A stretch of 11,728 bases of DNA from positions 1-11,728 of the IMG/VR virus record IMGVR_UViG_2565956624_000004; one strand, 5' to 3'. Under the pieces are notes generated by a model. The model was not told the origin of the DNA. It made no database searches and worked only from the letters and a program-made list of their open reading frames with translations. The DNA comes from a virus. Lineage: Duplodnaviria > Heunggongvirae > Uroviricota > Caudoviricetes. This document shows, one piece after another, positions 1-11,728 of the stretch (within the stretch, counting starts at the first letter, position 1; every line of letters starts with the position of its first letter). The translations under genes and the position numbers were made by a program.

Positions 1-195
1 TCTCATATCAGGGACTTGTTCGCACCTTCCTTAGCACGTTTCTGTGATGCAGCAGCGAAAGCGCAGGACGCTAACAAGCTGCGTGAAATATTTGGCAAAT
101 GCTGGAAATTACTACCGGAAGGATCGGAACATCGAATCAAGGCAAAAGATGTTTATGACATCCGGGTAGCAGAGCTTAACGGGGAGATGGGTTAA
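1..195 (+). CDS. hypothetical protein, 3' fragment (start lies upstream of window)
   Basis: Frame 1 is open from base 1 to TAA at 193-195 (...DVYDIRVAELNGEMG*). The stop overlaps the ssb ATG as TAATG, implying translational coupling. No recognisable motif in the 64 visible residues. Confidence 0.4.
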   Translation, partial: SHIRDLFAPSLARFCDAAAKAQDANKLREIFGKCWKLLPEGSEHRIKAKDVYDIRVAELNGEMG

Positions 196-656
196 TGAGT
201 TTAAATTCAATCACGCTGGGCGGGAATATCGGTAATGATATGGAGGTTCGCTACACACAAAACGGGAAAGCGATTGGTAGTTTTCCGTTAGCTGTAACGA
301 ATGGCTACGGCGATAATAAGCGGACAATGTGGGTCACTTGCCTGGTATTTGGTGAGCGTGCGGAAAAATTAGCGCCACATATCCGCAAGGGTGGAAAAAT
401 AGTGGTAAGCGGTCGCCTGGATGTTCGGCAATATGACCGGAACGACGGCACGAAGGGAACGGCGGTAGAAGTGGCGGTTAACGAATTTGAATTCATGAAC
501 GTTAACCAACAAGGCCAGCAGCAAGGCCAGCAGCAGAAAGCGCCACCGCCTCAAAATAATAACGGGAATGATGTCCCTCCTGATTTCGATGACGACATCC
601 CATTTGCTCCTATGGGGTTACAATATGGCAAAAGCAGGATCTACGCGCTATCTTGA
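195..656 (+). CDS. ssb: single-stranded DNA-binding protein (SSB, OB-fold) with an atypical C-terminal extension
   Basis: N-terminal OB-fold region closely resembles bacterial/phage SSB (ITLGGNIGNDMEVRYTQNGKAIGSFPLAV...WVTCLVFGERAEKLAPHIRKGGKIVVSGRL). Gln/Gly-rich linker (QQGQQQGQQQ) and acidic motif PPDFDDDIPF are present. The ORF reads 17 codons past DDDIPF before its TGA stop. Confidence 0.9.
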   Translation: MSLNSITLGGNIGNDMEVRYTQNGKAIGSFPLAVTNGYGDNKRTMWVTCLVFGERAEKLAPHIRKGGKIVVSGRLDVRQYDRNDGTKGTAVEVAVNEFEFMNVNQQGQQQGQQQKAPPPQNNNGNDVPPDFDDDIPFAPMGLQYGKSRIYALS

Positions 657-918
657 TGCGCCGCCGATTCCGCGAACAAAAGAGCAAGTTCTAAAAGAAG
701 CCCGTGATCAAATAGATCATGGGCTTTTTTTATGCGGCACGGCAGCGGAACGGATGGCAAAAAGATTTAGTGACCTGTACGCAAAACAAATATGGTTCGA
801 CAACTGGCAGGCAAGTTTTTATCCGCTGCAAAGAAAACCGGATATGCACTGGCCTGAATATGTCGATCCACGTATGCGCAAATATCGCGGGCGTATGGGC
901 CAGGTCATTAATGATTAA
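625..918 (+). CDS. hypothetical protein
   Basis: ORF 568-918 in the track; the first ATG is at 625 (MAKAGSTRYLD...), inside the 3' end of ssb in another frame. No motif recognised. Start is uncertain (568 by the ORF track, 625 by first ATG). Confidence 0.4.
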   Translation: MAKAGSTRYLDAPPIPRTKEQVLKEARDQIDHGLFLCGTAAERMAKRFSDLYAKQIWFDNWQASFYPLQRKPDMHWPEYVDPRMRKYRGRMGQVIND

Positions 919-930
919 TGAGGTGTTATC

Positions 931-1155
931 ATGATTGAAGAAAAAGAAGTAGACAAGGAAATTCCTGACGGTCGTGATGAGCTTATTTGTTTTGACGGCG
1001 GCCTGTATGAGTTCGAAACGTCTGCGGGGTGGCACGATAAATGGCCTAAGCCTACTCGCCAGGAATTAAGCGACCGTAAATCATTCGGCGAAGATGCCGA
1101 ACGGCTGGCTAATAACAAATGGCTTGATAAGTTAATTGCGGAGGGTGGCAAATGA
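931..1155 (+). CDS. hypothetical protein (74 aa)
   Basis: ATG preceded by GAGG-type Shine-Dalgarno; acidic N-terminus; no recognisable domain. Confidence 0.5.
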   Translation: MIEEKEVDKEIPDGRDELICFDGGLYEFETSAGWHDKWPKPTRQELSDRKSFGEDAERLANNKWLDKLIAEGGK

Positions 1156-1265
1156 GCTTTGCAAAAATTGCCGCATTGGCTGCGGCGTTGGCTGTCGCGG
1201 CGCTATATCTTAGCGTATCGCTTTATATTACGGTGGCGATCATCAAGCTGATTACTACTATGTGA
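1152..1265 (+). CDS. small hydrophobic single-pass membrane peptide (37 aa)
   Basis: Not in the ORF track (below size cut-off). Strong SD GGAGGG 6 nt upstream of ATG 1152; ATGA overlap with the preceding stop. Translation MSFAKIAALAAALAVAALYLSVSLYITVAIIKLITTM is almost entirely hydrophobic. Confidence 0.4.
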   Translation: MSFAKIAALAAALAVAALYLSVSLYITVAIIKLITTM

Positions 1266-1273
1266 GGTTAATC

Positions 1274-1393
1274 ATGAAAGTCGGTAAGGATATTGTGACG
1301 GTCGCGTTTTGCATTATTTGCTTCCTGTTTGTGGTTGTTTTTTGTGGCGCACTTGCTGCGGTGGTCAACTTTATTTTCAGTGGGTTGCTGTGA
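1274..1393 (+). CDS. small hydrophobic single-pass membrane peptide (39 aa)
   Basis: Not in the ORF track. SD GTGAGGT 5 nt upstream of ATG 1274. Translation MKVGKDIVTVAFCIICFLFVVVFCGALAAVVNFIFSGLL; its stop overlaps the next ATG (TGATG). Confidence 0.4.
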   Translation: MKVGKDIVTVAFCIICFLFVVVFCGALAAVVNFIFSGLL

Positions 1394-1665
1394 TGAAAAC
1401 GTGGGATGCAAAGGCTGGTGATCTTGTCGTATTGCCTGAATATCGTGATGACCCTGGATTGGTTGTACTGAACAAGATGTGCAACGATCTTGAGCGCCCG
1501 CTATTGGTTAAATATCTGGACGGGGAAATCATAGAGCCACGCTACTTTGATGAGATTGAACTAAAGGCCCGCAATGTTCGCGTTAAGCCGTTCCGGGATT
1601 ATGTTGAAGACCACTGGCGGAAATTGTTCGCCGGACTGAATGGGATGTTTGGCGTATGGCTATAA
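1393..1665 (+). CDS. hypothetical protein (90 aa)
   Basis: In-frame ATG at 1393 within track ORF 1309-1665, coupled to the upstream peptide gene by TGATG; the longer 1309 start would overlap two upstream genes. Confidence 0.5.
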   Translation: MKTWDAKAGDLVVLPEYRDDPGLVVLNKMCNDLERPLLVKYLDGEIIEPRYFDEIELKARNVRVKPFRDYVEDHWRKLFAGLNGMFGVWL

Positions 1666-1847
1666 AATTAGTGAAAGTTAAAGACCTGAAAGGCGGCGAA
1701 AAGATCCGCACGTGGTATGGCTATAAATTTATTGTCGCTGCCTTTTCTTTCGGGCCTGTGGGTCAAGTAACATTATTTGATGAAGAAGATGACGAGGTGG
1801 GTAAATGGCATCTTGAGCAATATGTCGAGGTGTTAAATGAAAATTAA
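1656..1847 (+). CDS. hypothetical protein (63 aa)
   Basis: ORF with a 10-nt overlap with the upstream gene; acidic stretch DEEDDE; no domain recognised. Confidence 0.5.
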   Translation: MAIKLVKVKDLKGGEKIRTWYGYKFIVAAFSFGPVGQVTLFDEEDDEVGKWHLEQYVEVLNEN

Positions 1848-2169
1848 ATTCCATAAAGCATATGATAGCGAAACAAACAAGCTATCACTATTTATTGAAT
1901 TCGAACGCCGGATCGTGGTTGTTCCCTGGGCACGGCGCTTTAATGACGCCGCCGGGCGGCGACAATTCGCGGTCGATATGCTGTTACGCGGTTGCGGCCT
2001 TATGCGCCCGCTATCTGATTTAAAACGGATGATGCCTGGATCGTTCGGTCAGATTGATGAAATAGAAATAAGCCAGGAAGAGCTAAAACGGGCGCGTGAT
2101 TTATTCCTTTCAAGTGAAGGAAACCCGTTCAACCCAGAAACTGAAATGAAATGGCATCATCCACTATAA
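1837..2169 (+). CDS. hypothetical protein (110 aa)
   Basis: ORF overlapping the upstream stop, in the same orientation as its neighbours; no domain recognised. Confidence 0.5.
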   Translation: MKIKFHKAYDSETNKLSLFIEFERRIVVVPWARRFNDAAGRRQFAVDMLLRGCGLMRPLSDLKRMMPGSFGQIDEIEISQEELKRARDLFLSSEGNPFNPETEMKWHHPL

Positions 2170-2181
2170 AGGATAAATATC

Positions 2182-2802
2182 ATGAACGACATCAAAACGG
2201 CTTATTCACTCGGCAGCGAAGGCATGTTAATCACTCGCTACACTGAAGACGCAAGTTTTCATGAAGTAGAAATTAAAGATTATCACGAAGTATTGAAAGA
2301 TATGGAAGCTGGCAAGTATGACGCTGATTTGAATCTGGCGTTACAGATTGTTGATATTGTGATGGATGCAAACATCCGCGATTATGTGTCTTTAAGTGCG
2401 GAAGAAAAAACATCGGTAGCTCGCTATGTCTTCTGTCTTGCTTTCGTAAAACGCATGGAAGAGGAATATGGGCGCGTACCAGTGCCGGAAGATATTGACC
2501 CGCTTGCGTTCGGAAGCGCTGTTATCTTCCCGCTTGATGAAAAACGTATGGGAAGCATTGCGCTGTATTCTATGCGTGGCATGATGAAAAAACTCTTTGA
2601 AGTTAAGGTGATGCAGAAATGTATTGATGAAGGCCACAAAGAGGAAGAAATAAAATTTTTCATGCCATTGCTTTACGTTGAAATGGTCGGCAATGATATG
2701 CGTGCAAATGATCTAGGTGTACAGGCGGCTATTGCGGTGCTTAATGATGCACGGAAAAACTCACAGCCAATGCCTGAACCGGAAAAACGTGTACTGCATT
2801 AA
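2182..2802 (+). CDS. hypothetical protein (206 aa)
   Basis: Long ORF with AAGGA SD upstream; acidic, likely cytoplasmic; no domain recognised. Confidence 0.6.
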   Translation: MNDIKTAYSLGSEGMLITRYTEDASFHEVEIKDYHEVLKDMEAGKYDADLNLALQIVDIVMDANIRDYVSLSAEEKTSVARYVFCLAFVKRMEEEYGRVPVPEDIDPLAFGSAVIFPLDEKRMGSIALYSMRGMMKKLFEVKVMQKCIDEGHKEEEIKFFMPLLYVEMVGNDMRANDLGVQAAIAVLNDARKNSQPMPEPEKRVLH

Positions 2803-2806
2803 CAGC

Positions 2807-2883
2807 GTGATTGCGATCACATAAATATACATTTTGTGTTGTGATCGCGTATCCGTTTTGTAAACCGAAATCAAAAGGTTTAC
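2807..2883. promoter_or_regulatory. putative operator/promoter region: inverted 9-mers GCGATCACA (2813-2821) and TGTGATCGC (2840-2848) flanking an AT-rich spacer, plus hairpin GTAAACC-N10-GGTTTAC (2860-2883)
   Basis: Read directly from the 99-bp intergenic gap between the stop at 2802 and ATG 2902. Both 9-mers contain GATC. No convincing -35/-10 pair could be fixed by eye. Confidence 0.25.
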
Positions 2884-2901
2884 GGCACGGAGGAAAACAA
2901 G

Positions 2902-3120
2902 ATGGCCCGCGAATACATGCTTTATTGCGTTGAGGGTGGCGTAGGCCATGATGCCTACGTCGCCGGGAAAGGCTATCCAGCCGATGAAGTGCTTTCTAAT
3001 ATGCACTTCCGGGAAAATGAAAGCCGGGTGTCTGTGTGGAAACGGTGCATTGATGGTATTGAGGTTGTAAGTATCGAACGGTATTTAGGCACGTTTGATT
3101 ACGGTGTTATTGAGGCTTAA
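2902..3120 (+). CDS. hypothetical protein (72 aa)
   Basis: ORF with GGAGGAAAA SD upstream; first gene after the intergenic gap; no domain recognised. Confidence 0.5.
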   Translation: MAREYMLYCVEGGVGHDAYVAGKGYPADEVLSNMHFRENESRVSVWKRCIDGIEVVSIERYLGTFDYGVIEA

Positions 3121-3218
3121 TTATGGACGACACATTGTTTTATATGTGCTGTTGCTGGGGTTTTATTGCCTTATGCCTGTTTATCAGGTGGTTTATTGAA
3201 TACCATATGAGGTAATGT

Positions 3219-3413
3219 ATGGAACAAGAAACTGATTATCGAATACCTGATAGCCTAAAATTAGTTGGCATTGGTTTCGGGTGTAGATTTGTATCTGACG
3301 CAAAAGGAGCGATTTATTTAATACGTCTTATTGATGGCGTTCAACATATAAGGCGACTAGGAATTTACATCAAAGCATTCAGAAGGGGTTATTTAAAAAC
3401 TCATGAAATTTAA
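3219..3413 (+). CDS. hypothetical protein (64 aa)
   Basis: ORF in the track; AT-rich codon usage differs from its neighbours; no domain recognised. Confidence 0.4.
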   Translation: MEQETDYRIPDSLKLVGIGFGCRFVSDAKGAIYLIRLIDGVQHIRRLGIYIKAFRRGYLKTHEI

Positions 3414-3606
3414 ACATTACATGGAATGGAAAATTCCAGAAGCAGCAACAAAGGCAGCGCCAGGAAATTATTCTGGCGTTTATTTTTATATGGATGGCAA
3501 ATGGTATTTCGGCAGCAGGCCGGATCACTATTATCAGGAAATATGCAAGCCTCACGTATGGGATATTAAAGAGCGCGTGAAAGGCGGGGTAATTGAGGAC
3601 GTTTAA
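3403..3606 (+). CDS. hypothetical protein (67 aa)
   Basis: ORF overlapping the upstream gene by 11 nt; Tyr/Trp-rich; no domain recognised. Confidence 0.45.
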   Translation: MKFKHYMEWKIPEAATKAAPGNYSGVYFYMDGKWYFGSRPDHYYQEICKPHVWDIKERVKGGVIEDV

Positions 3607-3607
3607 A

Positions 3608-3844
3608 ATGCTTAAGAGCTTTTTTAACTGGTTGGGGGCGTGGCTTTTGGCTACGCTTTTTGTTTTCCTGGCGGCCATGACTGTTATCGGTGTTATTATG
3701 CTGGGGGCTATGTTTATTACGTGGTCGCTTCCTGAATTTAACGACATTGGGAATATTCTTTTTGCAGCCCGCGCTTTATTGGCTGTTAGCGCATTCATTG
3801 GTTTTTGCTGGACTGCCGCGCCGGATTGGACTGACACATGGTGA
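3608..3844 (+). CDS. small integral membrane protein (about 2 predicted TM helices)
   Basis: ATG 3608 (track ORF begins at a TTG at 3593), GAGGA SD upstream. Two long hydrophobic segments (WLLATLFVFLAAMTVIGVIMLGAMFI and LFAARALLAVSAFIGFCW). Confidence 0.5.
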   Translation: MLKSFFNWLGAWLLATLFVFLAAMTVIGVIMLGAMFITWSLPEFNDIGNILFAARALLAVSAFIGFCWTAAPDWTDTW

Positions 3845-3848
3845 TCCT

Positions 3849-4082
3849 ATGGCCTTATTCAATATGTCAGAGCCGCAATTTAACGCCGTAAAGACTGCCG
3901 CCCGCGCCGCGCTTTCGGCCTGCAAAGCGGAGGTAGAGAAAAACGGCTACAGCGATAAAGCCACGCGGATGATATTAGATAAGCATTATCGCAAAGTCGC
4001 CCCACTAATCAGCATTGAGCGCTTTGTGTGGTTGGTGGGGTATTTAAACAACCGTTGGGGAACGAAACAGGATTATTTCTAA
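3849..4082 (+). CDS. hypothetical protein (77 aa)
   Basis: In-frame ATG 3849 within track ORF 3690-4082, directly after the upstream stop at 3844; no domain recognised. Confidence 0.45.
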   Translation: MALFNMSEPQFNAVKTAARAALSACKAEVEKNGYSDKATRMILDKHYRKVAPLISIERFVWLVGYLNNRWGTKQDYF

Positions 4083-4091
4083 GGGGGCGTA

Positions 4092-4631
4092 ATGAAAAGT
4101 GATTACGGCGGCAGCCATACGCCGAAAGAAATAAAAGACTTATGGCAAACGCCAAAACCCGTTTTTAGAGGAATGGATCGCGAGTTCGAATTTGTCGCAG
4201 ATGTGGCGGCAAACAGGGAAAACGCGCTCGTTCCTCGGTATATAACTGAAGAAATGGACGCGCTTACTTATCCGTGGGGAGCGGTGGCAATGCCTGGCGA
4301 ATATGTATGGATGAATCCACCATATTCAAACCCAGGTCCATTCGTTGATAAAGCAGCGCTCGAACATCAACGAAATCACATCGGTTGCGTAATGTTATTG
4401 CCCGCTGACGTTTCTGTTAGCTGGTTTATGAACGGCGTTGAGACGGCAAATGAGTGCCGATTAATCACGCGCGGGCGGCTGGCGTTTATCAATGCTGCGA
4501 CTGGTAAGCCAGTAAGCGGAAACAATAAAGGGAGCTTGTTTTTGATCTGGCATCCACGGTGCAGACATGAATGTATTTTCACGCAGATAACACGTAAAGA
4601 GCTATATGCAAGAGGTGCAGATAATGACTAA
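4092..4631 (+). CDS. phage-type DNA N6-adenine methyltransferase (Dam-like, NPPY motif)
   Basis: Translation has N-terminal WQTPKPVF and the catalytic motif IV NPPY (WMNPPYSN). This pattern and the ~180 aa size match the small phage Dam family (T1 Dam-like) as I recall it. Confidence 0.75.
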   Translation: MKSDYGGSHTPKEIKDLWQTPKPVFRGMDREFEFVADVAANRENALVPRYITEEMDALTYPWGAVAMPGEYVWMNPPYSNPGPFVDKAALEHQRNHIGCVMLLPADVSVSWFMNGVETANECRLITRGRLAFINAATGKPVSGNNKGSLFLIWHPRCRHECIFTQITRKELYARGADND

Positions 4632-5109
4632 TGCAGCAGATTTATTACGACTTGCAGCGGAAACAATAGAGCAAAGAGGTAAACAAAACGGTTACGACAG
4701 AAAAGAAGAAAAATCAGCGCCAAAAATAGCCACTATATACAACGCTAAGAAGGGGACAAATTTAACCCCGCTTGATGTATGGGATCTATTAATTTGTCTC
4801 AAGGAGGCGCGTTTAGAGGCCATTTTAGTTAATGAAAGCGATCCTACTGACACTTTGGTTGACTTGATTAGCTACAGCGCACTAAAAGCGGAGCAGATAT
4901 TAAACGATCAGGAGGAAGAACGGAAGAAAAAACAGTTCACTGCCGCCAATATTAATGATGGAATAATAAATGATGCAGCAATAACAAGCTGTAAGGGCTT
5001 GCCTCCTTCAATGCTTAACCCTCAATGTCGTTGTACTACTGATTCGCTTGATTTGAATTTTGACTTCAGTCGGAAGAGGGATAACCAAAATGAAAAAGGT
5101 GACAATTGA
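4624..5109 (+). CDS. hypothetical protein with low-complexity C-terminal half
   Basis: ATG 4624 with SD AGAGGTG 6 nt upstream (track ORF starts at 4606). Overlaps the methyltransferase stop. C-terminal half is N/D/K-rich low complexity. Confidence 0.5.
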   Translation: MTNAADLLRLAAETIEQRGKQNGYDRKEEKSAPKIATIYNAKKGTNLTPLDVWDLLICLKEARLEAILVNESDPTDTLVDLISYSALKAEQILNDQEEERKKKQFTAANINDGIINDAAITSCKGLPPSMLNPQCRCTTDSLDLNFDFSRKRDNQNEKGDN

Positions 5110-5593
5110 CAGGTTACTGGCCTGCGTTTATGTCGCCGTTTTCGTGATCATCAACCTTATTGTTAACCATTGCGGCCCGTGGGTAATTCCGATCACCACG
5201 GTAGCCGCAGTGTGTGTCAATATGATGATCCGCGACTTTCTGTTATATGACGGCGGCCTGAAATGGTCGGCTACAACGTGCGCAGCCGCTGGCGCAATCA
5301 CGGTGCTGATAAACTACGATGCCGGAATGGTGGCGGTCGCGTCATTCGTTGCGGTTGTTTCCGGTGCGCTTATATCTGGCGGCGTTTACCGGGTTTTACC
5401 TGGTGATTTCGATTCCAAACGCTGGCCTGCAAATATAGCTTCAGCCATTGGAGATGCGTTAATTTTTCCCACGCTATCGTTTATGGCATTTATGCCGGAA
5501 ATATCAGCTATGCAATTCATCTCAAAAATGGCAGCGGTAACGGTGATCACTATCATCATGCGCCGCTATTTTACGTTTGAGGGCAGAAAATGA
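5090..5593 (+). CDS. integral membrane protein, possibly VUT/YhhQ-family (queuosine-precursor-transporter-like)
   Basis: ATG 5090 (track ORF starts at TTG 5060). Several hydrophobic helices. The segment IASAIGDALIFPTLSFMAF resembles the conserved C-terminal segment of YhhQ/DUF165 proteins (TASTLFGNVSDTLAFFFIAF) as I recall it. The family assignment is tentative. Confidence 0.45.
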   Translation: MKKVTIDRLLACVYVAVFVIINLIVNHCGPWVIPITTVAAVCVNMMIRDFLLYDGGLKWSATTCAAAGAITVLINYDAGMVAVASFVAVVSGALISGGVYRVLPGDFDSKRWPANIASAIGDALIFPTLSFMAFMPEISAMQFISKMAAVTVITIIMRRYFTFEGRK

Positions 5594-6354
5594 GTGGGCT
5601 TAAAAATTGGGTGGTGTGGTCGCTGTACGACGGCAGCGGGTACGCCGTTAAAGATTGGGCTGACGCTGGCTATAAGTGTTATTGCTTCAACTATGACGGC
5701 GCTAACCACGGCGACTATGAAGGCGTAAAAATCATTCATCCGAATATTGAATACGTTAACGTATGGATTGACAGCCATTTCCTGGTGATGTTCTCCCCTG
5801 ATTTGTCTGTTTATCCAGATCCTGACATTATTCTGGCCTTCCCGCCATGCGACCATCTAGCCGTGTCCGGCGCTCGTTGGTTTGCCAGCAAGCGTGAAAA
5901 AGATCCTGACTTCCAGGTGAAGGCGGCATATAACGCAAAACTGGTAGAAACGCTGGCTGACATGTATCACGTCCCGTGGATGGTGGAAAATCCGGTTGGC
6001 GCACTGTCAACGTTATGGCGTAAGCCGGATTTTATCTTCAACCCGTGCGCTTACGGTGGCTACCTGCCTGAAGATGACAAACATCCTGCCTTCCCGGAAT
6101 ACATCGCCGACCGCGACGCATACACGAAGAAAACTTGTATCTGGTGCGGGAATGGATTTAATCAGCCGCTATTCCTGCCTGTGCCAATGCCTGATGAATG
6201 GGAAGACAGTAAGCAGCACGCTAAGTTAGGAGGAAAGTCGAAACGCACTAAGATGATCCGCTCACTAACGCCGCGTGGCTTTGCCCGTGCTGTATTCCTG
6301 GCTAACGACCGGGCCATCAATCGTACTACGCTCAACCGCGTTTTACCGGACTGA
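5590..6354 (+). CDS. compact DNA (cytosine-5)-methyltransferase-like protein
   Basis: Motifs in canonical C5-MTase order: motif I-like SLYDGSGYA, motif IV FPPCDHLAVSGA (Pro-Cys dipeptide, but PCD instead of PCQ), motif VI MVENPVGAL (ENV-like), motif IX-like RSLTPRGFARAVFL (RxLTPRExARLQGF pattern). At 254 aa it is short for the family. Confidence 0.6.
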   Translation: MSGLKNWVVWSLYDGSGYAVKDWADAGYKCYCFNYDGANHGDYEGVKIIHPNIEYVNVWIDSHFLVMFSPDLSVYPDPDIILAFPPCDHLAVSGARWFASKREKDPDFQVKAAYNAKLVETLADMYHVPWMVENPVGALSTLWRKPDFIFNPCAYGGYLPEDDKHPAFPEYIADRDAYTKKTCIWCGNGFNQPLFLPVPMPDEWEDSKQHAKLGGKSKRTKMIRSLTPRGFARAVFLANDRAINRTTLNRVLPD

Positions 6355-6376
6355 AGTTTACAAAATGGCGTCATTG

Positions 6377-6437
6377 TGTGATACAGGTCACATAATGGCG
6401 CTTTTCGTCTTGTTTACGTGTATCCATTTTGTATACT
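6377..6437 (+). promoter_or_regulatory. putative sigma70-type promoter (-35 TTGTTT 6410-6415, 16-bp spacer, -10 TATACT 6432-6437) with an upstream CRP-like palindrome TGTGA-N6-TCACA (6377-6392)
   Basis: Hexamers and palindrome read directly from the 160-bp gap between the stop at 6354 and ATG 6514. The palindrome matches both half-sites of the CRP consensus and is centred about 60 bp upstream of the predicted start site. Confidence 0.35.
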
Positions 6438-6513
6438 TCAAGCAAACGAAATGCTCTTTAAAAATCCGGCAGCGCTGAAATGCGTAGAAATCACCTTAAA
6501 GGGAGGGAGCATT

Positions 6514-6690
6514 ATGTCTTTTGATAATTACCAATGGCATGACGACTATGAACGAGAAAGCGTCATGCGTGCAATGTGCAATGTATGCAGCACAAAGAAA
6601 GGAGGCTGTAACGAGTGCAACGAATGCTTAGATCATTGGCTAAGGGCCGGACACACCGAAAGGCTGAACGAAACAGAGAATCAAAAATAA
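6514..6690 (+). CDS. small Cys-rich (zinc-ribbon-like) protein, NinF-like
   Basis: ATG 6514 with strong SD GGGAGGGAG upstream (the track's longer 6418 start lacks this). CxxC...CxxCxxC pattern (MCNVCSTKKGGCNECNEC). Sits immediately upstream of ninG as NinF does in lambda; the NinF resemblance is from memory. Confidence 0.45.
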   Translation: MSFDNYQWHDDYERESVMRAMCNVCSTKKGGCNECNECLDHWLRAGHTERLNETENQK

Positions 6691-6704
6691 TAGGGGTGGT
6701 TTTT

Positions 6705-7310
6705 ATGCAGAACCCTAAAAAACCAATAAGACGCCGTTGCAAGTGCTGCGGCGTTTTTTTTGAGCCTAAATATCACAATCAAACGTGGTGCAGTGATGAG
6801 TGTCTGGAAGAGCTGAAGTTTGATCAGCTATGCCGCGACCGTGAGAAGGCTATGAAGGCTATGGAACGGAAGAAACGCCGTGATAGCCAGCGGGAAGAAC
6901 GCAACCGGAAGCGGAAGCAGTTAAATCCGCGTAGTTATTGGTTGAAGCAGGCACAAGCGGTATTTAATGCCTATATCCGCGAACGTGACGCGGGTCAGCC
7001 GTGCATATCATGCGGGACTTACTATTACGAACAATGCGGAGCAGATGCCGGACACTATAGAACGGTTGCCGCCGCCGGGCACCTTCGTTTTAACGAGGAT
7101 AATTGCCACAAACAATGCAGGCACTGCAACCAGACATTAGATGGCAACATAGAAGCATATCGCCCAGCGCTGATTAGGAAAATTGGCCTTGCCAGGGTGG
7201 AAGCGCTGGAGAACAACAACGAAACTCATAAATGGGCGATCGAAGAATGCAAGGAGATCATAAAAGTCTATCAGGCTAAATTGGACGCCTTAAGGAGAAA
7301 GGCAGCATGA
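6705..7310 (+). CDS. ninG: NinG/Rap-family recombination protein (structure-specific endonuclease)
   Basis: In-frame ATG 6705 with SD GGGGTGG. Translation carries NinG hallmarks: N-terminal RRRCKCCGVFF, PRSYWLKQAQ, PCISCG, DAGHYR, LRFNEDNCHKQCRHCN, and C-terminal IEECKEI. Confidence 0.85.
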   Translation: MQNPKKPIRRRCKCCGVFFEPKYHNQTWCSDECLEELKFDQLCRDREKAMKAMERKKRRDSQREERNRKRKQLNPRSYWLKQAQAVFNAYIRERDAGQPCISCGTYYYEQCGADAGHYRTVAAAGHLRFNEDNCHKQCRHCNQTLDGNIEAYRPALIRKIGLARVEALENNNETHKWAIEECKEIIKVYQAKLDALRRKAA

Positions 7311-7708
7311 ATGAATATACTTTTAGCCTGCCTTACCCGCCATCGAACAATAAATATTACCGGCATTCGCGCGGTTTCCACTATATAAGCAAGGAAGGTA
7401 AGGAATACAGGGAGCAGGTAAAAGACATTATAAAACTGCTTAATCTGAAAATTAATCTTAAGTGTAGGCTATCAATAACGGTGTATATTGCACCGCCAGA
7501 TAACAGACGCCGCGATATTGACAATGTAGGGAAGGCATTATTTGACGCTATAACTTATTCCGGTTTTTGGGCTGATGATAGCCAGGTTGACGCAATGAAA
7601 TTTGTCCGCTGCCGGAAGGTAAAAAGAGGGCGATTGTTTATCAAGGTACGCGAACGCGGCGACCTGTTACCGGATATTAACGAATACTTGACTAATATGT
7701 GGTGGTAA
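7307..7708 (+). CDS. rusA: RusA-family Holliday junction resolvase
   Basis: Translation matches RusA along its length: YTFSLPYPPSNNKYYRH, PPDNRRRDIDNVGKALFDAITYSGFWADDSQV, RGRLFIKV. ATGA overlap with ninG. Confidence 0.85.
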   Translation: MNEYTFSLPYPPSNNKYYRHSRGFHYISKEGKEYREQVKDIIKLLNLKINLKCRLSITVYIAPPDNRRRDIDNVGKALFDAITYSGFWADDSQVDAMKFVRCRKVKRGRLFIKVRERGDLLPDINEYLTNMWW

Positions 7709-7710
7709 CA

Positions 7711-7893
7711 ATGAAAAACGAAATTAAAGATCTGCAAATAGATATTCAGCGCGACGAGCGTGATTTAGCCACAGTCCGACAAATTCAGGCTTTTCACATG
7801 CGAGAATTACTTGCACTGAAAGAGTTTGAAAGAAAGCTAGTGCAATCAATATCTGATCGCAAAAGACTGGTTGCACGTTACGGGGGTAAATAA
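7711..7893 (+). CDS. hypothetical coiled-coil protein (60 aa)
   Basis: ATG 7711 three nt after the rusA stop; charged, helical-looking sequence. Occupies the small-ORF slot often found between rusA and Q in lambdoid prophages. Confidence 0.45.
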   Translation: MKNEIKDLQIDIQRDERDLATVRQIQAFHMRELLALKEFERKLVQSISDRKRLVARYGGK

Positions 7894-8615
7894 TGAATTT
7901 GGAATCTATTCTTAAATTCCACTTCCCAAAATCACCGCGTTTGTCAGATGAAAGCCGGGGCACGTCCCCGGATGCGCTTAATACTACGGATGCGCTAACT
8001 GCCGCTGGTATGGCGCAATCGCGCGTAGAGCTTGGTTATAGCGCTTTTCTGGGAAAGATGGAACTATCACAAGCCGAAAAACATAAGGCCGTAGTTTTGC
8101 TTATAGAGCGTTTAAAGGCTATGGCAAAAGATTATGAATACGTTATGGAACTGGACGAGGCTAAACGCAATGATCTCATTATTCTTGTTGCCGTTTTCGC
8201 GTTTCGGGATTATTGCCAGAGTGCCGCGACGGAAAAAACTTGTATGGAGTGCGGCGGATATAAATTTACGTTTGACGAATACGGAGAAAAACACCTTTGC
8301 AAAAAATGCAAGGGGCATGGGAAGGTTCTCAATCATTGTAAACAATGCAAGGGCCGTGGCGAAGTACCGGATAAAGCAGCCAGCGAAGCGGCGGAAATGC
8401 CAGTGTTCAAAACGTGCCAGCATTGCGGCGGGCGCGGGTACTCGCGTTTCCCCGTAGATCTTGTGCGTCAGGCCGTTAATCAGCTTGTTTTTCCGGTAAG
8501 CCGATCAACCTGGTGGAAAAAATACCGGGTTTTCTATGAAGACGCCATAGCGGAGCTATTCAAAGAAGAGGGCCGCGCGGAAAGTGAAATCAAACGAGTG
8601 ACACGGGGTGAATAA
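7893..8615 (+). CDS. putative Q-like antitermination protein with DnaJ-type zinc finger
   Basis: Four CxxCxGxG repeats (CMECGGYK, CKKCKGHG, CKQCKGRG, CQHCGGRG), i.e. a DnaJ CR-type zinc finger. Position directly downstream of ninG-rusA is where Q sits in lambdoid phages. The Q assignment is inference from position plus zinc-binding architecture. Confidence 0.45.
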   Translation: MNLESILKFHFPKSPRLSDESRGTSPDALNTTDALTAAGMAQSRVELGYSAFLGKMELSQAEKHKAVVLLIERLKAMAKDYEYVMELDEAKRNDLIILVAVFAFRDYCQSAATEKTCMECGGYKFTFDEYGEKHLCKKCKGHGKVLNHCKQCKGRGEVPDKAASEAAEMPVFKTCQHCGGRGYSRFPVDLVRQAVNQLVFPVSRSTWWKKYRVFYEDAIAELFKEEGRAESEIKRVTRGE

Positions 8616-8815
8616 TGGATAAGCTGGAAATAAACGATCAGTTTGCCGTTATCTTATTTGAAGATAAAACAGGCGGCGCATGGTGTAAGAAAGTCACTGG
8701 CGCGGAAGCGCGTTTAATATTGGGTATGGCAAGCGCGTTAAATGAAGGCGAATTGCCAGCCATCCCTATTAAGCCTGTCAAAATTTACAAGCGGGGTGAC
8801 GATGATGAAGCCTAA
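8615..8815 (+). CDS. hypothetical protein (66 aa)
   Basis: ORF whose ATG overlaps the upstream stop (TAATG); acidic C-terminus; no domain recognised. Confidence 0.45.
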   Translation: MDKLEINDQFAVILFEDKTGGAWCKKVTGAEARLILGMASALNEGELPAIPIKPVKIYKRGDDDEA

Positions 8816-9074
8816 ACTAAAAGAACATCTATTTGCAAAGCTGGTTAATGACCTGACATTATCCGCGCGGTTGTGCCGTGATACACAACAATTGAGGGCG
8901 TGGATAGCAAGGGATTTAAAAAAATATATTGAGCCTGGCGGGCCGGGTGGCGAAATCACGATGGACGAAGCCATCAAGCGCCGTTCGGCTGAATGGTCAG
9001 TGAGTAACACCGGATTAACCGGATACATTGAAGGCTATAACGACTGTTTACAGGATCATAGCGATGGCAAGTAA
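8805..9074 (+). CDS. hypothetical protein (about 89 aa)
   Basis: In-frame ATG 8805 (alternative 8802) with SD GGGGTG 6 nt upstream, within track ORF 8742-9074; no domain recognised. Confidence 0.45.
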   Translation: MKPKLKEHLFAKLVNDLTLSARLCRDTQQLRAWIARDLKKYIEPGGPGGEITMDEAIKRRSAEWSVSNTGLTGYIEGYNDCLQDHSDGK

Positions 9075-9375
9075 AGACCTGCATTTGAATCTGAAAGGGG
9101 AATATTTCCACGCCATATGGACTGGAAAGAAGGTGGAGGAATACCGGCTTTATAATGACTATTGGCGTAAACGTCTGGAAGGGCGGGAATATGAACGCCT
9201 GATTATTAAATGGGGATACCCTGCCAACCACGAAAAACACAGGATTATTAACCTTCCTTATTTTGGGTACGAAGTAAAAACTATCACTCATCCATTATTC
9301 GGCCCTGATCCTGTTAAGGTATTCGCAATTAAATGTGACAGAAATTGGATGTTGAGAGGTGAAAATGAAAAGTAA
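9064..9375 (+). CDS. putative ASCH/PUA-like domain protein
   Basis: In-frame ATG 9064 with AGGA 8 nt upstream. N-terminal pattern LNLKGEYFHAIWTGKKVEEYR resembles the ASCH signature (hydrophobic strand, then G-K-K-x-x-E-x-R). Tentative. Confidence 0.4.
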   Translation: MASKDLHLNLKGEYFHAIWTGKKVEEYRLYNDYWRKRLEGREYERLIIKWGYPANHEKHRIINLPYFGYEVKTITHPLFGPDPVKVFAIKCDRNWMLRGENEK

Positions 9376-9580
9376 CCGCAAGCGCCTTGTAAGGGCGTAC
9401 GACAAAGCATTAAAGGCTTTTGATGATCTGCGACACAATAAACGCCAGCGCCGCAAATGGGCGCGTATGCTTGTTTATGAGTGGCATTATTCTGATGCTT
9501 TTATGGAAAGCGCACCGCTATTAACACAAGAACAAGCCGACGAAGTGGCTAACGATAACGTTTATTATATGATGTGGTGA
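9365..9580 (+). CDS. hypothetical protein, paralog A of a tandem pair
   Basis: ATG 9365 (track ORF starts at GTG 9359). MKSNRKRLVRAYDKALKAFDDL... ends ...DNVYYMMW. Clearly homologous to the next gene. Confidence 0.5.
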   Translation: MKSNRKRLVRAYDKALKAFDDLRHNKRQRRKWARMLVYEWHYSDAFMESAPLLTQEQADEVANDNVYYMMW

Positions 9581-9584
9581 CAAT

Positions 9585-9806
9585 ATGAAAAGTAACCGTA
9601 AGCGCATGATAAGAGCATATGATAAAGCGTTAATGGAATTTGACATACTACCACGCAGCAAGCGCCACCGCCGCCAATTTGCGAGATATATTTTTCATAT
9701 ATGGCACGATGCTGATTTCTTTTTTGATGCCAGATATATAACACAGGAAGATGCTGATAATATAGCTTACGATAACGTTTACTACATAATGAGTGAGTGT
9801 AATTAA
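9585..9806 (+). CDS. hypothetical protein, paralog B of a tandem pair
   Basis: MKSNRKRMIRAYDKALMEFDIL...DNVYYIMSECN; N- and C-termini conserved with paralog A, central region diverged. Confidence 0.5.
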   Translation: MKSNRKRMIRAYDKALMEFDILPRSKRHRRQFARYIFHIWHDADFFFDARYITQEDADNIAYDNVYYIMSECN

Positions 9807-9807
9807 T

Positions 9808-10173
9808 ATGCAAATAATCATTGATTACCTTTGCCACGCTGTAAATACTCTTTTTGGTTTTTATCAACAACCATTCCTCAAAGAATGGGACGAAATGCTT
9901 AATGACATCATTGATAAAGGGTTAATAGTTGAGGTTGGCAAGCTAACGATAAAATTTAATTACGAAGGCAAAGAATATGAAATATGGGTAGGTAATAGAT
10001 GGTACTCATACGGGCATATTTATTCAATTGGCGGCAAATACATTAAACGTAGCCAGGAGTTCAGGCCGCGATTCCGCACAATGCGCCGCCTGCGTGACCT
10101 GCATATGAATATATTTGAAAATCAGGAAGCGTGTGAACTATTCAAGATCTACGGGGATAAATCATGGAGCTAA
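9808..10173 (+). CDS. hypothetical protein (121 aa)
   Basis: ATG 9808 two nt after the upstream stop (track ORF starts at GTG 9793); no domain recognised. Confidence 0.5.
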   Translation: MQIIIDYLCHAVNTLFGFYQQPFLKEWDEMLNDIIDKGLIVEVGKLTIKFNYEGKEYEIWVGNRWYSYGHIYSIGGKYIKRSQEFRPRFRTMRRLRDLHMNIFENQEACELFKIYGDKSWS

Positions 10174-10394
10174 AAATCTGGCAGGCTATTGACGTGGTTG
10201 ATAATGAATTGTCTATGTTCGCCACTAACGGGAAACGCGTTGTGATCGCTACATGGACACGTAACCATGATGATATTGCTTTTCGTCGCAAGGCTGCGGA
10301 ATGGCTTTTCTCAGATGGCGGCTACACGATGAACATCGCACAGCTTGCCAGAATGAAAGATGAAAAGCTGGTGGACAGCTACACAACTGCGTAA
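10164..10394 (+). CDS. hypothetical protein (76 aa)
   Basis: ORF overlapping the upstream gene by 10 nt; no domain recognised. Confidence 0.45.
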   Translation: MELKIWQAIDVVDNELSMFATNGKRVVIATWTRNHDDIAFRRKAAEWLFSDGGYTMNIAQLARMKDEKLVDSYTTA

Positions 10395-10404
10395 TGGGGT
10401 GAAT

Positions 10405-10635
10405 ATGCGTATCTATGAACACAAGCGGGATAAAACCCGCTTTTTTGTTCGTGCTGGCGTGGCGTACCAGTATCACGAATGCGGTTACATTGAGGCGCTT
10501 GCTTACGATCTGGATTTTGAGCAAGAAAAGGCATGGTTCGATTTTAAAATTTACCGGAAGCGCAAACCAACACGCGACGAGCGCCACGCTATCCGGGACT
10601 TTTTAATCAGTATTGAGCGCTGGGGGACAGATTAA
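10405..10635 (+). CDS. hypothetical protein (76 aa)
   Basis: In-frame ATG 10405 with GGGGTG upstream, within track ORF 10360-10635; basic protein; no domain recognised. Confidence 0.4.
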   Translation: MRIYEHKRDKTRFFVRAGVAYQYHECGYIEALAYDLDFEQEKAWFDFKIYRKRKPTRDERHAIRDFLISIERWGTD

Positions 10636-10862
10636 TGAAAGTAAAATTCTTGCACGATCACGGTTATCCGTCATTGAAACAGGTTGTTGGTAAGGTGGTT
10701 GACGTCGTTCATAGTGATAATGTCACTTGCATGATTAACGGTGCTGACCTAATTGCCGCTGGCGCTGATGATCATTACATTAATCCTGCATGGTCGTATA
10801 CGTTCAGCCTGGGAGACTTCGTTGGCGACAAGGGGCGCGGGCTGGAAGTGGTCGAGGGTTAA
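10635..10862 (+). CDS. hypothetical protein (75 aa)
   Basis: TAATG overlap with the upstream gene; no domain recognised. Confidence 0.45.
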   Translation: MKVKFLHDHGYPSLKQVVGKVVDVVHSDNVTCMINGADLIAAGADDHYINPAWSYTFSLGDFVGDKGRGLEVVEG

Positions 10863-10866
10863 CATC

Positions 10867-11115
10867 ATGGACGTTTACGAAGATCTATACCTCCATACAG
10901 ACATAAACACTTTTTATTTTCTTAAAAACGGCGTCGTGTATCGCAGTGACGACGGGGTGATAATGAAAGAGTGGTTATTTAAGCGTAAAGACCTACTCGA
11001 CGATCTGGTTTTTGCCGGGATATTTCGTAAACGTCCGGCTAACCTGGAAGAAGAAATGTTGATAGAGGTATATCAAAATGAAAATCAGGGTAAGTTATTT
11101 CCGGGCGAAAGATAA
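10867..11115 (+). CDS. hypothetical protein (82 aa)
   Basis: In-frame ATG 10867 within track ORF 10753-11115, 4 nt after the upstream stop; no domain recognised. Confidence 0.45.
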   Translation: MDVYEDLYLHTDINTFYFLKNGVVYRSDDGVIMKEWLFKRKDLLDDLVFAGIFRKRPANLEEEMLIEVYQNENQGKLFPGER

Positions 11116-11329
11116 GGCAACGGGAAAGCAGATGGCGATCCTGGTTAACGAGGCGCAGTACATGTTTGTCCTTCAGCCGTGGTGTGTTGTAGACCTTAAC
11201 GACAATTGCCGCCGTCACGCTGCGCGGAGCGCTGTAGGCATGAAAGGATGGCAGCCGCGCGACATGGAAAACTATTGTGAATGGAAATTGGTGGCAAAAT
11301 ACACGGTAGACTATAAAGGGGTTTTCTGA
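11078..11329 (+). CDS. hypothetical protein (83 aa; alternative start 11132)
   Basis: ATG 11078 has GAGGT 8 nt upstream but overlaps the preceding gene by 38 nt. An internal ATG at 11132 would avoid the overlap. Two CxxC-like pairs (CVVDLNDNC, and one Cys in ENYCEWK). Confidence 0.4.
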   Translation: MKIRVSYFRAKDKATGKQMAILVNEAQYMFVLQPWCVVDLNDNCRRHAARSAVGMKGWQPRDMENYCEWKLVAKYTVDYKGVF

Positions 11330-11586
11330 TGGAACATTTATATTTTAATGTAATTCAGACTCGCGATCTCGACAAATTCAAAGACGGTAAGGTTTATTGC
11401 GGGGTTCAGATTTACGGTGCGCCTGGTGGTGATGGTGCAATGGCTATAACTGGCGATGATGGTAAGTTATATTTTGCTTATGCAAGCCATATCAATAACG
11501 CCTCTGGCTTGTATATTTATCGCATCGTGCATGATTTCCGTGAGATCGCTGTACTTCATGCTCGCGAAGGTAGTAAACCGGAATAA
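11329..11586 (+). CDS. hypothetical protein (85 aa)
   Basis: ATG overlapping the upstream stop (TGATG); Gly-rich segment GAPGGDGAMAITGDDG; no domain recognised. Confidence 0.45.
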   Translation: MEHLYFNVIQTRDLDKFKDGKVYCGVQIYGAPGGDGAMAITGDDGKLYFAYASHINNASGLYIYRIVHDFREIAVLHAREGSKPE

Positions 11587-11612
11587 ATGTGATCTACCAC
11601 ACAAAGTTTACG

Positions 11613-11640
11613 AAATGGCATTGTTTAGGCAGTGCCATTT
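11613..11640. promoter_or_regulatory. inverted repeat AAATGGCA-N12-TGCCATTT in a 96-bp intergenic gap (operator, weak terminator or RNA hairpin)
   Basis: Read directly; 8-bp perfect arms with a 12-nt loop, followed by TTGTTACATATAAG, which contains -10-like hexamers. Only a short T run follows the stem, so a strong intrinsic terminator is not supported. Confidence 0.2.
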
Positions 11641-11682
11641 TGTTACATATAAGCCACGGAAAGACGAATGGGAGGTAAGAAG

Positions 11683-11728
11683 ATGAACGCTAACGCTAAG
11701 GAAGGTGCGAATAAGCGGGGAAATTCTT
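11683..11728 (+). CDS. hypothetical protein, 5' fragment (continues beyond window)
   Basis: ATG 11683 with strong SD GGGAGGT 6 nt upstream; MNANAKEGANKRGNS... open to the window end. Confidence 0.35.
   Translation, partial: MNANAKEGANKRGNS

Follow-up and report, generated by a model that had tools for sequence, protein, structure and literature searches.

An SSB whose acidic tip lies inside the chain

What can the acidic tip of an SSB, a protein that binds single-stranded DNA, do when it is buried within the polypeptide? The SSB C-terminal tip is a textbook motif that works as a free C-terminus, and antibiotic discovery as well as models of replisome and repair recruitment rest on that. The question is raised by the ssb gene in an 11,728-nucleotide stretch of Caudoviricetes DNA (IMG/VR record IMGVR_UViG_2565956624_000004, positions 1 to 11,728; hereafter the window), whose product carries DDDIPF at residues 132-137 of 153 (nt 588-605), as the initial annotation had correctly noticed. 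PF00436 matches residues 3-101 of this protein (E 2e-23, 82.7 bits vs a cut-off of 26; Pfam), TIGR00621 reaches 90 bits vs a cut-off of 53.95, and RefSeq names the 153-aa product SSB (WP_023156546.1) in E. coli GN04592. The gene is organized as follows:

195 to 656, plus strand: ssb coding sequence, 153 aa, stop included (open reading frame list; PF00436; TIGR00621; phrog_44; WP_023156546.1)
195 to 506, plus strand: OB-fold ssDNA-binding domain, residues 1-104 (Pfam residues 3-101; AlphaFold2 pLDDT 87-97, beta-barrel topology)
507 to 587, plus strand: Q/P/N-rich linker predicted to be disordered, residues 105-131 (sequence; pLDDT <50)
588 to 605, plus strand: internal acidic tip motif DDDIPF, residues 132-137 (sequence; homologue conservation)
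606 to 650, plus strand: conserved 15-residue extension APMGLQYGKSRIYAL, residues 138-152 (conservation in divergent carriers; pN/pS; predicted disorder)
651 to 656, plus strand: extra Ser153 codon and TGA stop (deletion junction, from comparison with HNH-bearing relatives)

Phe137 is followed by the 16 residues APMGLQYGKSRIYALS (606-653) and then by TGA (654-656). The initial annotation had correctly read an in-frame extension before TGA, but its figure of 17 codons is reached only if the stop is counted. The first 15 residues (…RIYAL) fit a class of 14-15-residue extensions with hydrophobic ends, and the sixteenth is a Ser. The tail ends ...DDDIPFAPMGLQYGKSRIYAL(S); the peptide through the extension is WMDFDDDIPFAPMGLQYGKSRIYAL(S), with WMDFDDDIPF as its tip-ending counterpart. 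At the start of the extension the protein reads DFDDDIPF-APMGL, that is, a [DE]-rich stretch followed by IPF and [AS]-P-phi-G-L.

Canonical SSBs (E. coli SSB; PF00436) share the OB-fold, the disordered Q/P-rich linker and the acidic ...DFDDDIPF. Their tip is C-terminal, whereas in the window 15-16 conserved residues follow and there is no Phe alpha-carboxylate for the pockets of ExoI, chi, PriA, RecO and DnaG. Measured against the terminal Phe with free carboxylate of bacterial-type SSBs, the protein retains the linker and DDDIPF and continues for 16 residues beyond Phe137. AlphaFold2, run on a 54-sequence alignment, predicted a confident OB barrel for residues 1-104 (pLDDT >87). Residues 105-153 stayed below a pLDDT of 50 and did not dock onto the OB domain in this monomer prediction; within the tetramer, contacts may exist. 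The low pLDDT and the missing domain contact suggest that the extension behaves as part of the disordered tail. On inspection alone, two identities of the extension were dismissed: a motif that binds the beta clamp (QLxLF / QLxLxL) and a tag resembling ssrA.

The extension is not a sequencing artefact

A frame that stays open for 16 codons has a chance probability of ~0.46 and is therefore uninformative by itself; what exceeds chance is conservation. The initial annotation had considered a sequencing or assembly indel or a missed stop, such that the real protein would end ...DDDIPF. Indeed, the close relatives MagusPhagus, mEp021, P0013, P0015 and P0017-22 end with IPF-stop. These extension-less alleles, however, differ through replacement of a segment and not through a 1-nt change. 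Over nt 31-1200 the window shares 99.9-100% identity with four complete E. coli chromosomes and 91% with phage mEp013, and the junction between the ssb tail and abc2 (560-700) is 100% identical in the same four genomes, which were assembled independently. In mEp013, a cultured phage, the junction DNA and the ssb/abc2 overlap are the same, and its SSB and Abc2 proteins have the tail and the N-terminus, respectively, of those of the window. Moreover, hundreds of independent sequences in unrelated genes conserve the extension peptide with different codons. These comparative data refute the artefact reading, to which we assign a negligible probability. The nucleotide identities place the window in a mEp013 / mEp021 / MagusPhagus-type prophage of E. 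coli.

The capped tail is conserved in phages, prophages and plasmids

Alignment with related phage SSBs showed that the extension is conserved. A whole-protein homology search yielded 114 clusters, 58 of which run past IPF while 49 end at IP[FW]. In 54 extended homologues, gathered through the similarity of their OB domains (identity as low as 35%), I135, P136 and F137 do not vary, and the DDD as well as G141, L142, Q143, Y144 and G145 are at least 90% conserved. SSBs of Salmonella and E. coli phages that are only 35-40% identical in the OB domain share the ending DDDIPF-AP[FIVLM]GLQYGKSRIYA[LI]. In a Salmonella contig, in BUCT618, in Vibrio phage 455E52-1 and in PVP-SE1 (gp39), DDDIPF-AP-x-GLQYG... 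is followed by a terminator or intergenic DNA, and the codons of these four extensions differ at nearly every synonymous site. Because such DNA lies 3' of the extension in several unrelated phages, an overlapping gene cannot account for the conservation.

The capped-tip motif can be written DDDIPF-AP-phi-GL-x(8-9)-phi-COOH, with 14-16 residues beyond the tip, and occurs in hundreds of genes from phages, prophages and plasmids of Gamma- and Betaproteobacteria. Typical of the class are a fixed extension length of 14-15, AP-x-GL, an aromatic side chain at +7 and a hydrophobic last residue. Using the 26-aa tail as a tblastn query, we found 217 phage records with at least 80% query coverage, from phages infecting Escherichia, Salmonella, Klebsiella, Vibrio, Yersinia, Serratia, Cronobacter and Acinetobacter. 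A similar search with the 26-aa tail returned 124 plasmid records at or above 80% coverage, mainly non-mobilizable replicons of 40-95 kb. IMG/VR was scanned with a degenerate DNA pattern for DIPFAPxGL, which matched at least 120 contigs, and 119 of the 120 matches listed are SSB-like ORFs ending 14-15 residues past IPF. The recurrent extension classes APIGLPYPRHAIYVI, APIGLMYPRHLINVI, APVGLPFPRHAIHAV and APIGLPFPSHSIYAL were found in enteric hosts in the genome scan, and the classes APIGLQYPALLNCM, ...SCKRLLHCI and ...QEGRLFLHMI had relatives in marine hosts. A scan of bacterial contigs with one genome per species gave mostly chance matches (Poribacteria etc.), and filtering left 26 true loci. 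They lie in Providencia, Proteus, Sodalis, Trabulsiella, Tatumella, Atlantibacter, Moellerella, Vibrio, Rheinheimera, Idiomarina, Colwellia, Pseudoalteromonas, Oceanisphaera and Chromobacterium. Their surroundings are prophage-like, and none of the 26 has a UvrA-sized neighbour.

As positions +1, +2, +4 and +5 were set by the search pattern, invariance at these positions is circular in the pattern-derived sample; the homology-derived set gives them independent support, a partial correction. Across unique extension sequences (Nei-Gojobori), pS is saturated at 0.75-0.82 vs a pN of 0.29-0.31, and with a pN/pS of ~0.4 the extension evolves, by this measure, under purifying selection. MagusPhagus and mEp021, close relatives that lack the extension, are viable, so phages can do without it, at least under laboratory conditions. 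Among viable phages with near-identical SSBs, the extension has been gained and lost.

Carrier genes are already annotated, as SSB or as hypothetical protein, and the tail variant is apparently undescribed. A literature search on the extension sequences found no description, and none is given in the HK620 and Enc34 papers or in the accessible part of the DRT10 preprint. In GenBank, the SSBs mEp013_25 (L256 1057-1521) and mEp554_23 (L257 465-932) are labelled 'hypothetical protein'. A Rheinheimera MAG contig (L163) contains two capped tails ~550 nt apart, at 5719-5744 (...APMGLECRRMLHCI) and 6267-6292 (...APMGLECWRMLHCV), suggesting tandem SSB-like genes or a duplicated tail.

The tail is carried by at least six ssDNA-binding scaffolds

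The tail is modular. It occurs on at least six ssDNA-binding scaffolds, namely phrog_44 (canonical SSB), phrog_743 (a second SSB family), phrog_112 (gp2.5-like), and phrog_2544, phrog_3284 and phrog_4477, which are families of unknown or SSB-like function. Clustering the first 105 residues at 60% identity gave 22 N-terminal groups, and the same extension variants are found on different groups. A phmmer search with the 31-aa tail, a very short query, against 1.84 billion representatives returned only 4 matches, one of which, P0115, exposed the phrog_3284 scaffold.

T7 gp2.5-type SSBs (phrog_112, DUF2815; Enc34 ORF6, PMC5686142) also mediate protein contacts through an acidic disordered C-terminal tail, and some gp2.5-like proteins in IMG/VR bear the DDDIPF-APIGLQEGKFFLHMI tail of the window class. 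Gp2.5 nevertheless belongs to a different fold family from the window SSB, and classical gp2.5 has a terminal Phe.

The phrog_4477 family includes rV5 ORF214 and, from the BASEL collection, Bas50_0088 and Bas54_0087. They end in a tail of the same class (...DDIPFAPVGLQYGKSRIHAL), and an HNH gene starts from the same internal ATG. They differ from the window SSB in their scaffold, which measures ~423 aa, is reported to contain two OB folds and is unmatched by PF00436. Pfam returned no match for rV5 ORF214 or for the HNH proteins, and both were matched by PHROGs. All three proteins have D252 and Y351, the positions of DRT10 escape mutations in Bas52_0087 according to the accessible part of a recent preprint (bioRxiv 10.64898/2026.04.29.721553). 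Gene order and these two residues suggest that the three are orthologues of Bas52_0087. The same part of the preprint describes Bas52_0087 as a two-OB SSB-like DRT10 trigger with an 'FDDDIPF C-tip' possibly interfacing with ExoI, and does not mention an internal position of the motif (bioRxiv 10.64898/2026.04.29.721553). The tip of this Vequintavirus SSB-like trigger is treated there as canonical, and a cap could alter that interpretation.

The range of scaffolds bears on the idea that the extension acts in cis: bound to the OB fold of its carrier or to adjacent oligomers, it would adjust the affinity or cooperativity of ssDNA binding. The acidic tails of SSB, gp2.5 and gp32 contact their own DNA-binding surfaces; such contacts are discussed in PMC5928155 and PMC5686142. 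The occurrence of one extension on at least six different scaffolds nevertheless argues against a scaffold-specific contact, as does the undocked tail of the AlphaFold2 monomer, and we consider cis regulation quite improbable.

The abc2 start is left over from a deleted homing endonuclease gene

The second ORF seen by the initial annotation does begin at ATG 625 within the extension, in the +1 frame relative to ssb. Its relevant features are:

625 to 918, plus strand: abc2 (anti-RecBCD) coding sequence, 97 aa, 32-nt overlap with ssb (phrog_656; annotated abc2/anti-RecBCD in MagusPhagus and mEp021)
614 to 617, plus strand: GGGG, likely Shine-Dalgarno sequence for ATG 625 with 7-nt spacing, inside the ssb extension codons (sequence; putative function)
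625 to 648, plus strand: abc2 codons 1-8 (MAKAGSTR), left over from the 5' part of a homing endonuclease gene of the HNH type (comparison with relatives)

ORF 625-918 matches phrog_656 (abc2 anti-RecBCD) over residues 9-97 with an E-value of 1.6e-30 and lies 3' of the erf-ssb module, in the gene order of MagusPhagus, mEp021 and mEp013. By homology and position, it is the anti-RecBCD gene abc2. That its start derives from a deleted homing endonuclease gene had been overlooked in the initial annotation, as had the fact that the extension is a conserved module.

Four allelic states of this locus were distinguished. In MagusPhagus, L253 and L255, IPF-stop is followed by ~15 nt and an abc2 gene starting MGDYLKAPPPP. 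In mEp021, an HNH endonuclease gene lies between IPF-stop and abc2. In mEp554 and L254, the extension follows IPF, and an HNH gene (phrog_2340) begins at the ATG in caaTATGGa and precedes abc2; extension and HNH gene overlap in this way in rV5, Bas50/54 and a Sodalis prophage, too. In the window, mEp013 and the four E. coli genomes, the extension overlaps an abc2 gene starting MAKAGSTRY-LDAPPIP. The HNH starts MENIESTRCKRC (mEp554), MDDTESTLYKRC (L254) and MAKVESTHCKRC (rV5, Bas50/54) use the same ATG within the QYGK codons, and where relatives retain the HNH gene, ssb ends ...IYAL-TAA. Free-standing phage HNH genes of this kind (phrog_2340 / phrog_1035, 'endonuclease VII') lie directly 3' of ssb in mEp554, L254 and rV5. 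Unlike these HNH-bearing phages, the window has no endonuclease ORF, just a scar of the start site and 8 codons fused to abc2. Full HNH ORFs are present in mEp554 and L254, and the window, with codons 1-8 only, has neither the HNH catalytic motif nor the zinc-binding CxxC pairs.

Compared base by base, the window agrees with the HNH-bearing allele to ~nt 647 and, from nt 649 on, with the 5' region of abc2; TAT is common to both. This switch at ~647/649 between HNH-bearing flank and abc2 sequence indicates that an HNH gene was deleted here. The deletion gave abc2 the start codon, the likely ribosome-binding site (GGGG 614-617) and codons 1-8 of the HNH gene; ssb lost its original TAA and gained Ser153 and TGA from abc2 sequence.

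The history of the locus invites the explanation that the extension is a by-product of a selfish element, where an HNH gene inserts after the IPF codon, exploits the overlap for its start and ribosome-binding site or for destruction of the target site, and leaves a peptide without a role for SSB. Two features would be expected from this: the HNH ORF starts at an ATG inside the QYGK codons in mEp554, L254, rV5, Bas50/54 and the Sodalis prophage, and, compared with extension-less alleles, extension and HNH gene form a single insertion right after IPF. However, an HNH gene lies downstream in only 3 of 157 extension-bearing loci, most extension classes (e.g. GLPYPRHAIYVI) lack such an ATG, and terminators follow the extension in BUCT618, Salmonella and PVP-SE1. 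Among relatives, the SSB frame (QYGKSRIYAL / QYGRHRIYAL / QYGKHRIYAL) is also better conserved than the HNH frame (MAKAG / MDDTE / MENIE / MAKVE), and the HNH gene of mEp021 follows an SSB without extension. We therefore hold a mere by-product to be rather remote. Homing-associated co-conversion is a plausible vehicle for the spread of this tail class; given the 3 of 157 loci, homing cannot explain the class as a whole.

Free-standing HNH / 'endonuclease VII' genes (phrog_2340 / phrog_1035) recur in unrelated phages, where they lie directly 3' of ssb-type genes and often overlap the final codons: L003 1605-2129 (mEp021), L257 ~901-1434 (mEp554), L254 2922-3443, L009 3044-3667 (rV5), L261/L262 1444-2067 (Bas54/Bas50), and further ones in L146 and L032. 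It seems that homing favours the 3' end of ssb. For the endonuclease VII coding sequence of mEp554, the annotated start lies upstream of the conserved ATG.

The neighbourhood does not point to a phage-encoded partner

Shared neighbours were sought by clustering all ORFs within 6 kb either side of 157 extended genes (64 SSB groups). The families seen comprise integrase, CI-type repressor, Erf, YqaJ exonuclease, RdgC and methyltransferases. No neighbour family occurred in more than 11 of the 64 SSB groups within these 6 kb, a distance and a sensitivity at which a distant or fast-evolving partner could escape. In an all-against-all BLAST of the whole BUCT618, Vibrio 455E52-1 and mEp013 genomes, SSB alone was common to all three. 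Since these searches showed no shared phage partner and the carriers are so far confined to elements of Gamma- and Betaproteobacteria, either a host partner or a partner-free function is suggested. If there is a partner, it is probably a host protein rather than a phage-encoded one.

Tip and extension may form a composite docking motif

Known SSB-Ct pockets (DnaG, ExoI, RecO, chi, PriA) offer a hydrophobic pocket for Phe177 and a salt bridge to its carboxylate (PMC5872125, PMC6393309). As these pockets use the carboxylate of the terminal Phe, an internal Phe would be unable to offer it. The second option of the initial annotation, an SSB variant incapable of canonical tail contacts, is thus plausible. 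It is also incomplete, since the extension is a conserved module in itself.

The most economical reading is a composite docking motif, because DDDIPF is invariant, the length is fixed, and the AP-x-GL hinge, the aromatic residue at +7 and the hydrophobic C-terminus are all kept. We somewhat favour the view that tip and extension constitute a portable short linear docking motif that re-specifies the partner choice of SSB. A 'capped-tip' SSB of this kind would combine a normal OB-fold, a disordered linker, DDDIPF and AP-phi-GL-x(8-9)-phi-COOH, with the Phe no longer C-terminal. Phages would have grafted tip and extension onto many ssDNA-binding scaffolds, altering the protein that SSB recruits. 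Burial of the Phe carboxylate would weaken binding to host ExoI, chi, RecQ, PriA, RecO and DnaG, and the new stretch of hydrophobic and aromatic residues, which has a free hydrophobic C-terminus of its own, may contact a conserved partner. We infer both the docking role and the loss of canonical contacts.

HK620 provides an earlier case in which a phage-specific SSB tail selects the partner. Its SSB, too, is encoded beside an annealing protein and abc2, and the C-terminal hexapeptide NDYPPF is needed to stimulate the cognate recombinase Sak4 (PMC5928155). The phage annealing proteins Red-beta and Sak4 likewise read SSB tails (PMC5928155, PMC6393309). The HK620 tail differs in that it ends in Phe without an extension, and the neighbouring recombinase of the window is Erf, truncated by IS5.

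The burial of the Phe could also be the whole purpose of the extension. As a pure cap it would block the tip so that host ExoI, RecJ and RecQ are not recruited, or so that sensors of free tips are evaded, and no partner would be involved. Such masking agrees with the need of canonical pockets for a free Phe carboxylate (PMC5872125, PMC6393309), with the dispensability of an extension that comes and goes among near-identical SSBs, and with the link of the rV5-type carrier to ExoI and DRT10 biology in the accessible part of the preprint. Yet a pure cap needs neither a fixed length of 14-15 nor an invariant AP-x-GL, a conserved +7 aromatic or a hydrophobic C-terminus, and deletion of the tip would be simpler, while DDDIPF is invariant. 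We regard masking alone as unlikely.

The hydrophobic end itself might be a signal for degradation or turnover, read by a cytoplasmic AAA+ protease that limits phage SSB. Non-polar C-termini can destabilise E. coli proteins, and the C-terminal residues of the carriers are consistently non-polar (IYAL, IYVI, LNCM, LHMI). A degron, however, leaves the AP-x-GL beside IPF and the fixed length unexplained; in addition, the window tail ends in Ser, and the known LAA-type tag is unmatched. This makes a degron very unlikely.

Returning to the docking motif, a more specific version is conceivable, which we put forward as tentative: DDDIPF plus AP-phi-GL-x(8-9)-phi-COOH may be an unrecognised, horizontally mobile motif on at least six scaffolds that binds one specific conserved factor of Gamma- and Betaproteobacteria, for example to hijack with high affinity, or to inhibit, a single host SSB-interacting protein such as ExoI, or that is seen by a defence system. 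If so, the mobile motif would set the outcome of recombination or the triggering of DRT10-type defence during infection. In any case, the widespread capped-tip class contradicts the textbook need for a terminal tip: a large conserved class of mobile-element SSBs buries an invariant tip, which implies either an unknown partner or binding mode or a deliberate uncoupling from the host SSB interactome. The tail may also matter for recombineering, since the pairing of annealing protein and SSB tail limits portability. To test the question, two peptides and a single stop-codon mutant of mEp013, a cultured phage, would be enough.

Other features of the window

Upstream of ssb, the window begins in an insertion:

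1 to 35, no strand assigned: IS5 end, inserted into erf (IS5 ends of P1 and 434 match at 100%; the intact prophage is homologous from nt 31 on)
36 to 195, plus strand: 3' remnant of erf (single-strand annealing protein), whose stop overlaps the ssb start (ERF coding sequence upstream in GN04592, MagusPhagus and mEp013)

TTAG is found at 31-34. IS5 interrupts erf and leaves its last ~59 codons; erf is intact in the otherwise identical GN04592 prophage. Owing to this interruption, the recombination module of the prophage is probably defective in the source strain.

For the rest, the window consists of an early-gene region of the usual nin-like kind. Judged by resemblance, the ORFs 4092-4631, 5590-6354, 6615-7310 and 7307-7708 include adenine methyltransferase-like, NinG-like and RusA-like genes; the mEp013 annotation has NinG and RusA next to each other. 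ORF 5590-6354 resembles the mEp013 ORF 16937-17701, which is 63% identical to a putative cytosine-C5 methyltransferase of BUCT618. Finally, the adjacent 73-aa ORFs 9359-9580 and 9585-9806 are clearly paralogous (MKMKSNRKRLVRAYDKALKAFDDL... and MKSNRKRMIRAYDKALMEFDIL...): a small gene has been duplicated in tandem.
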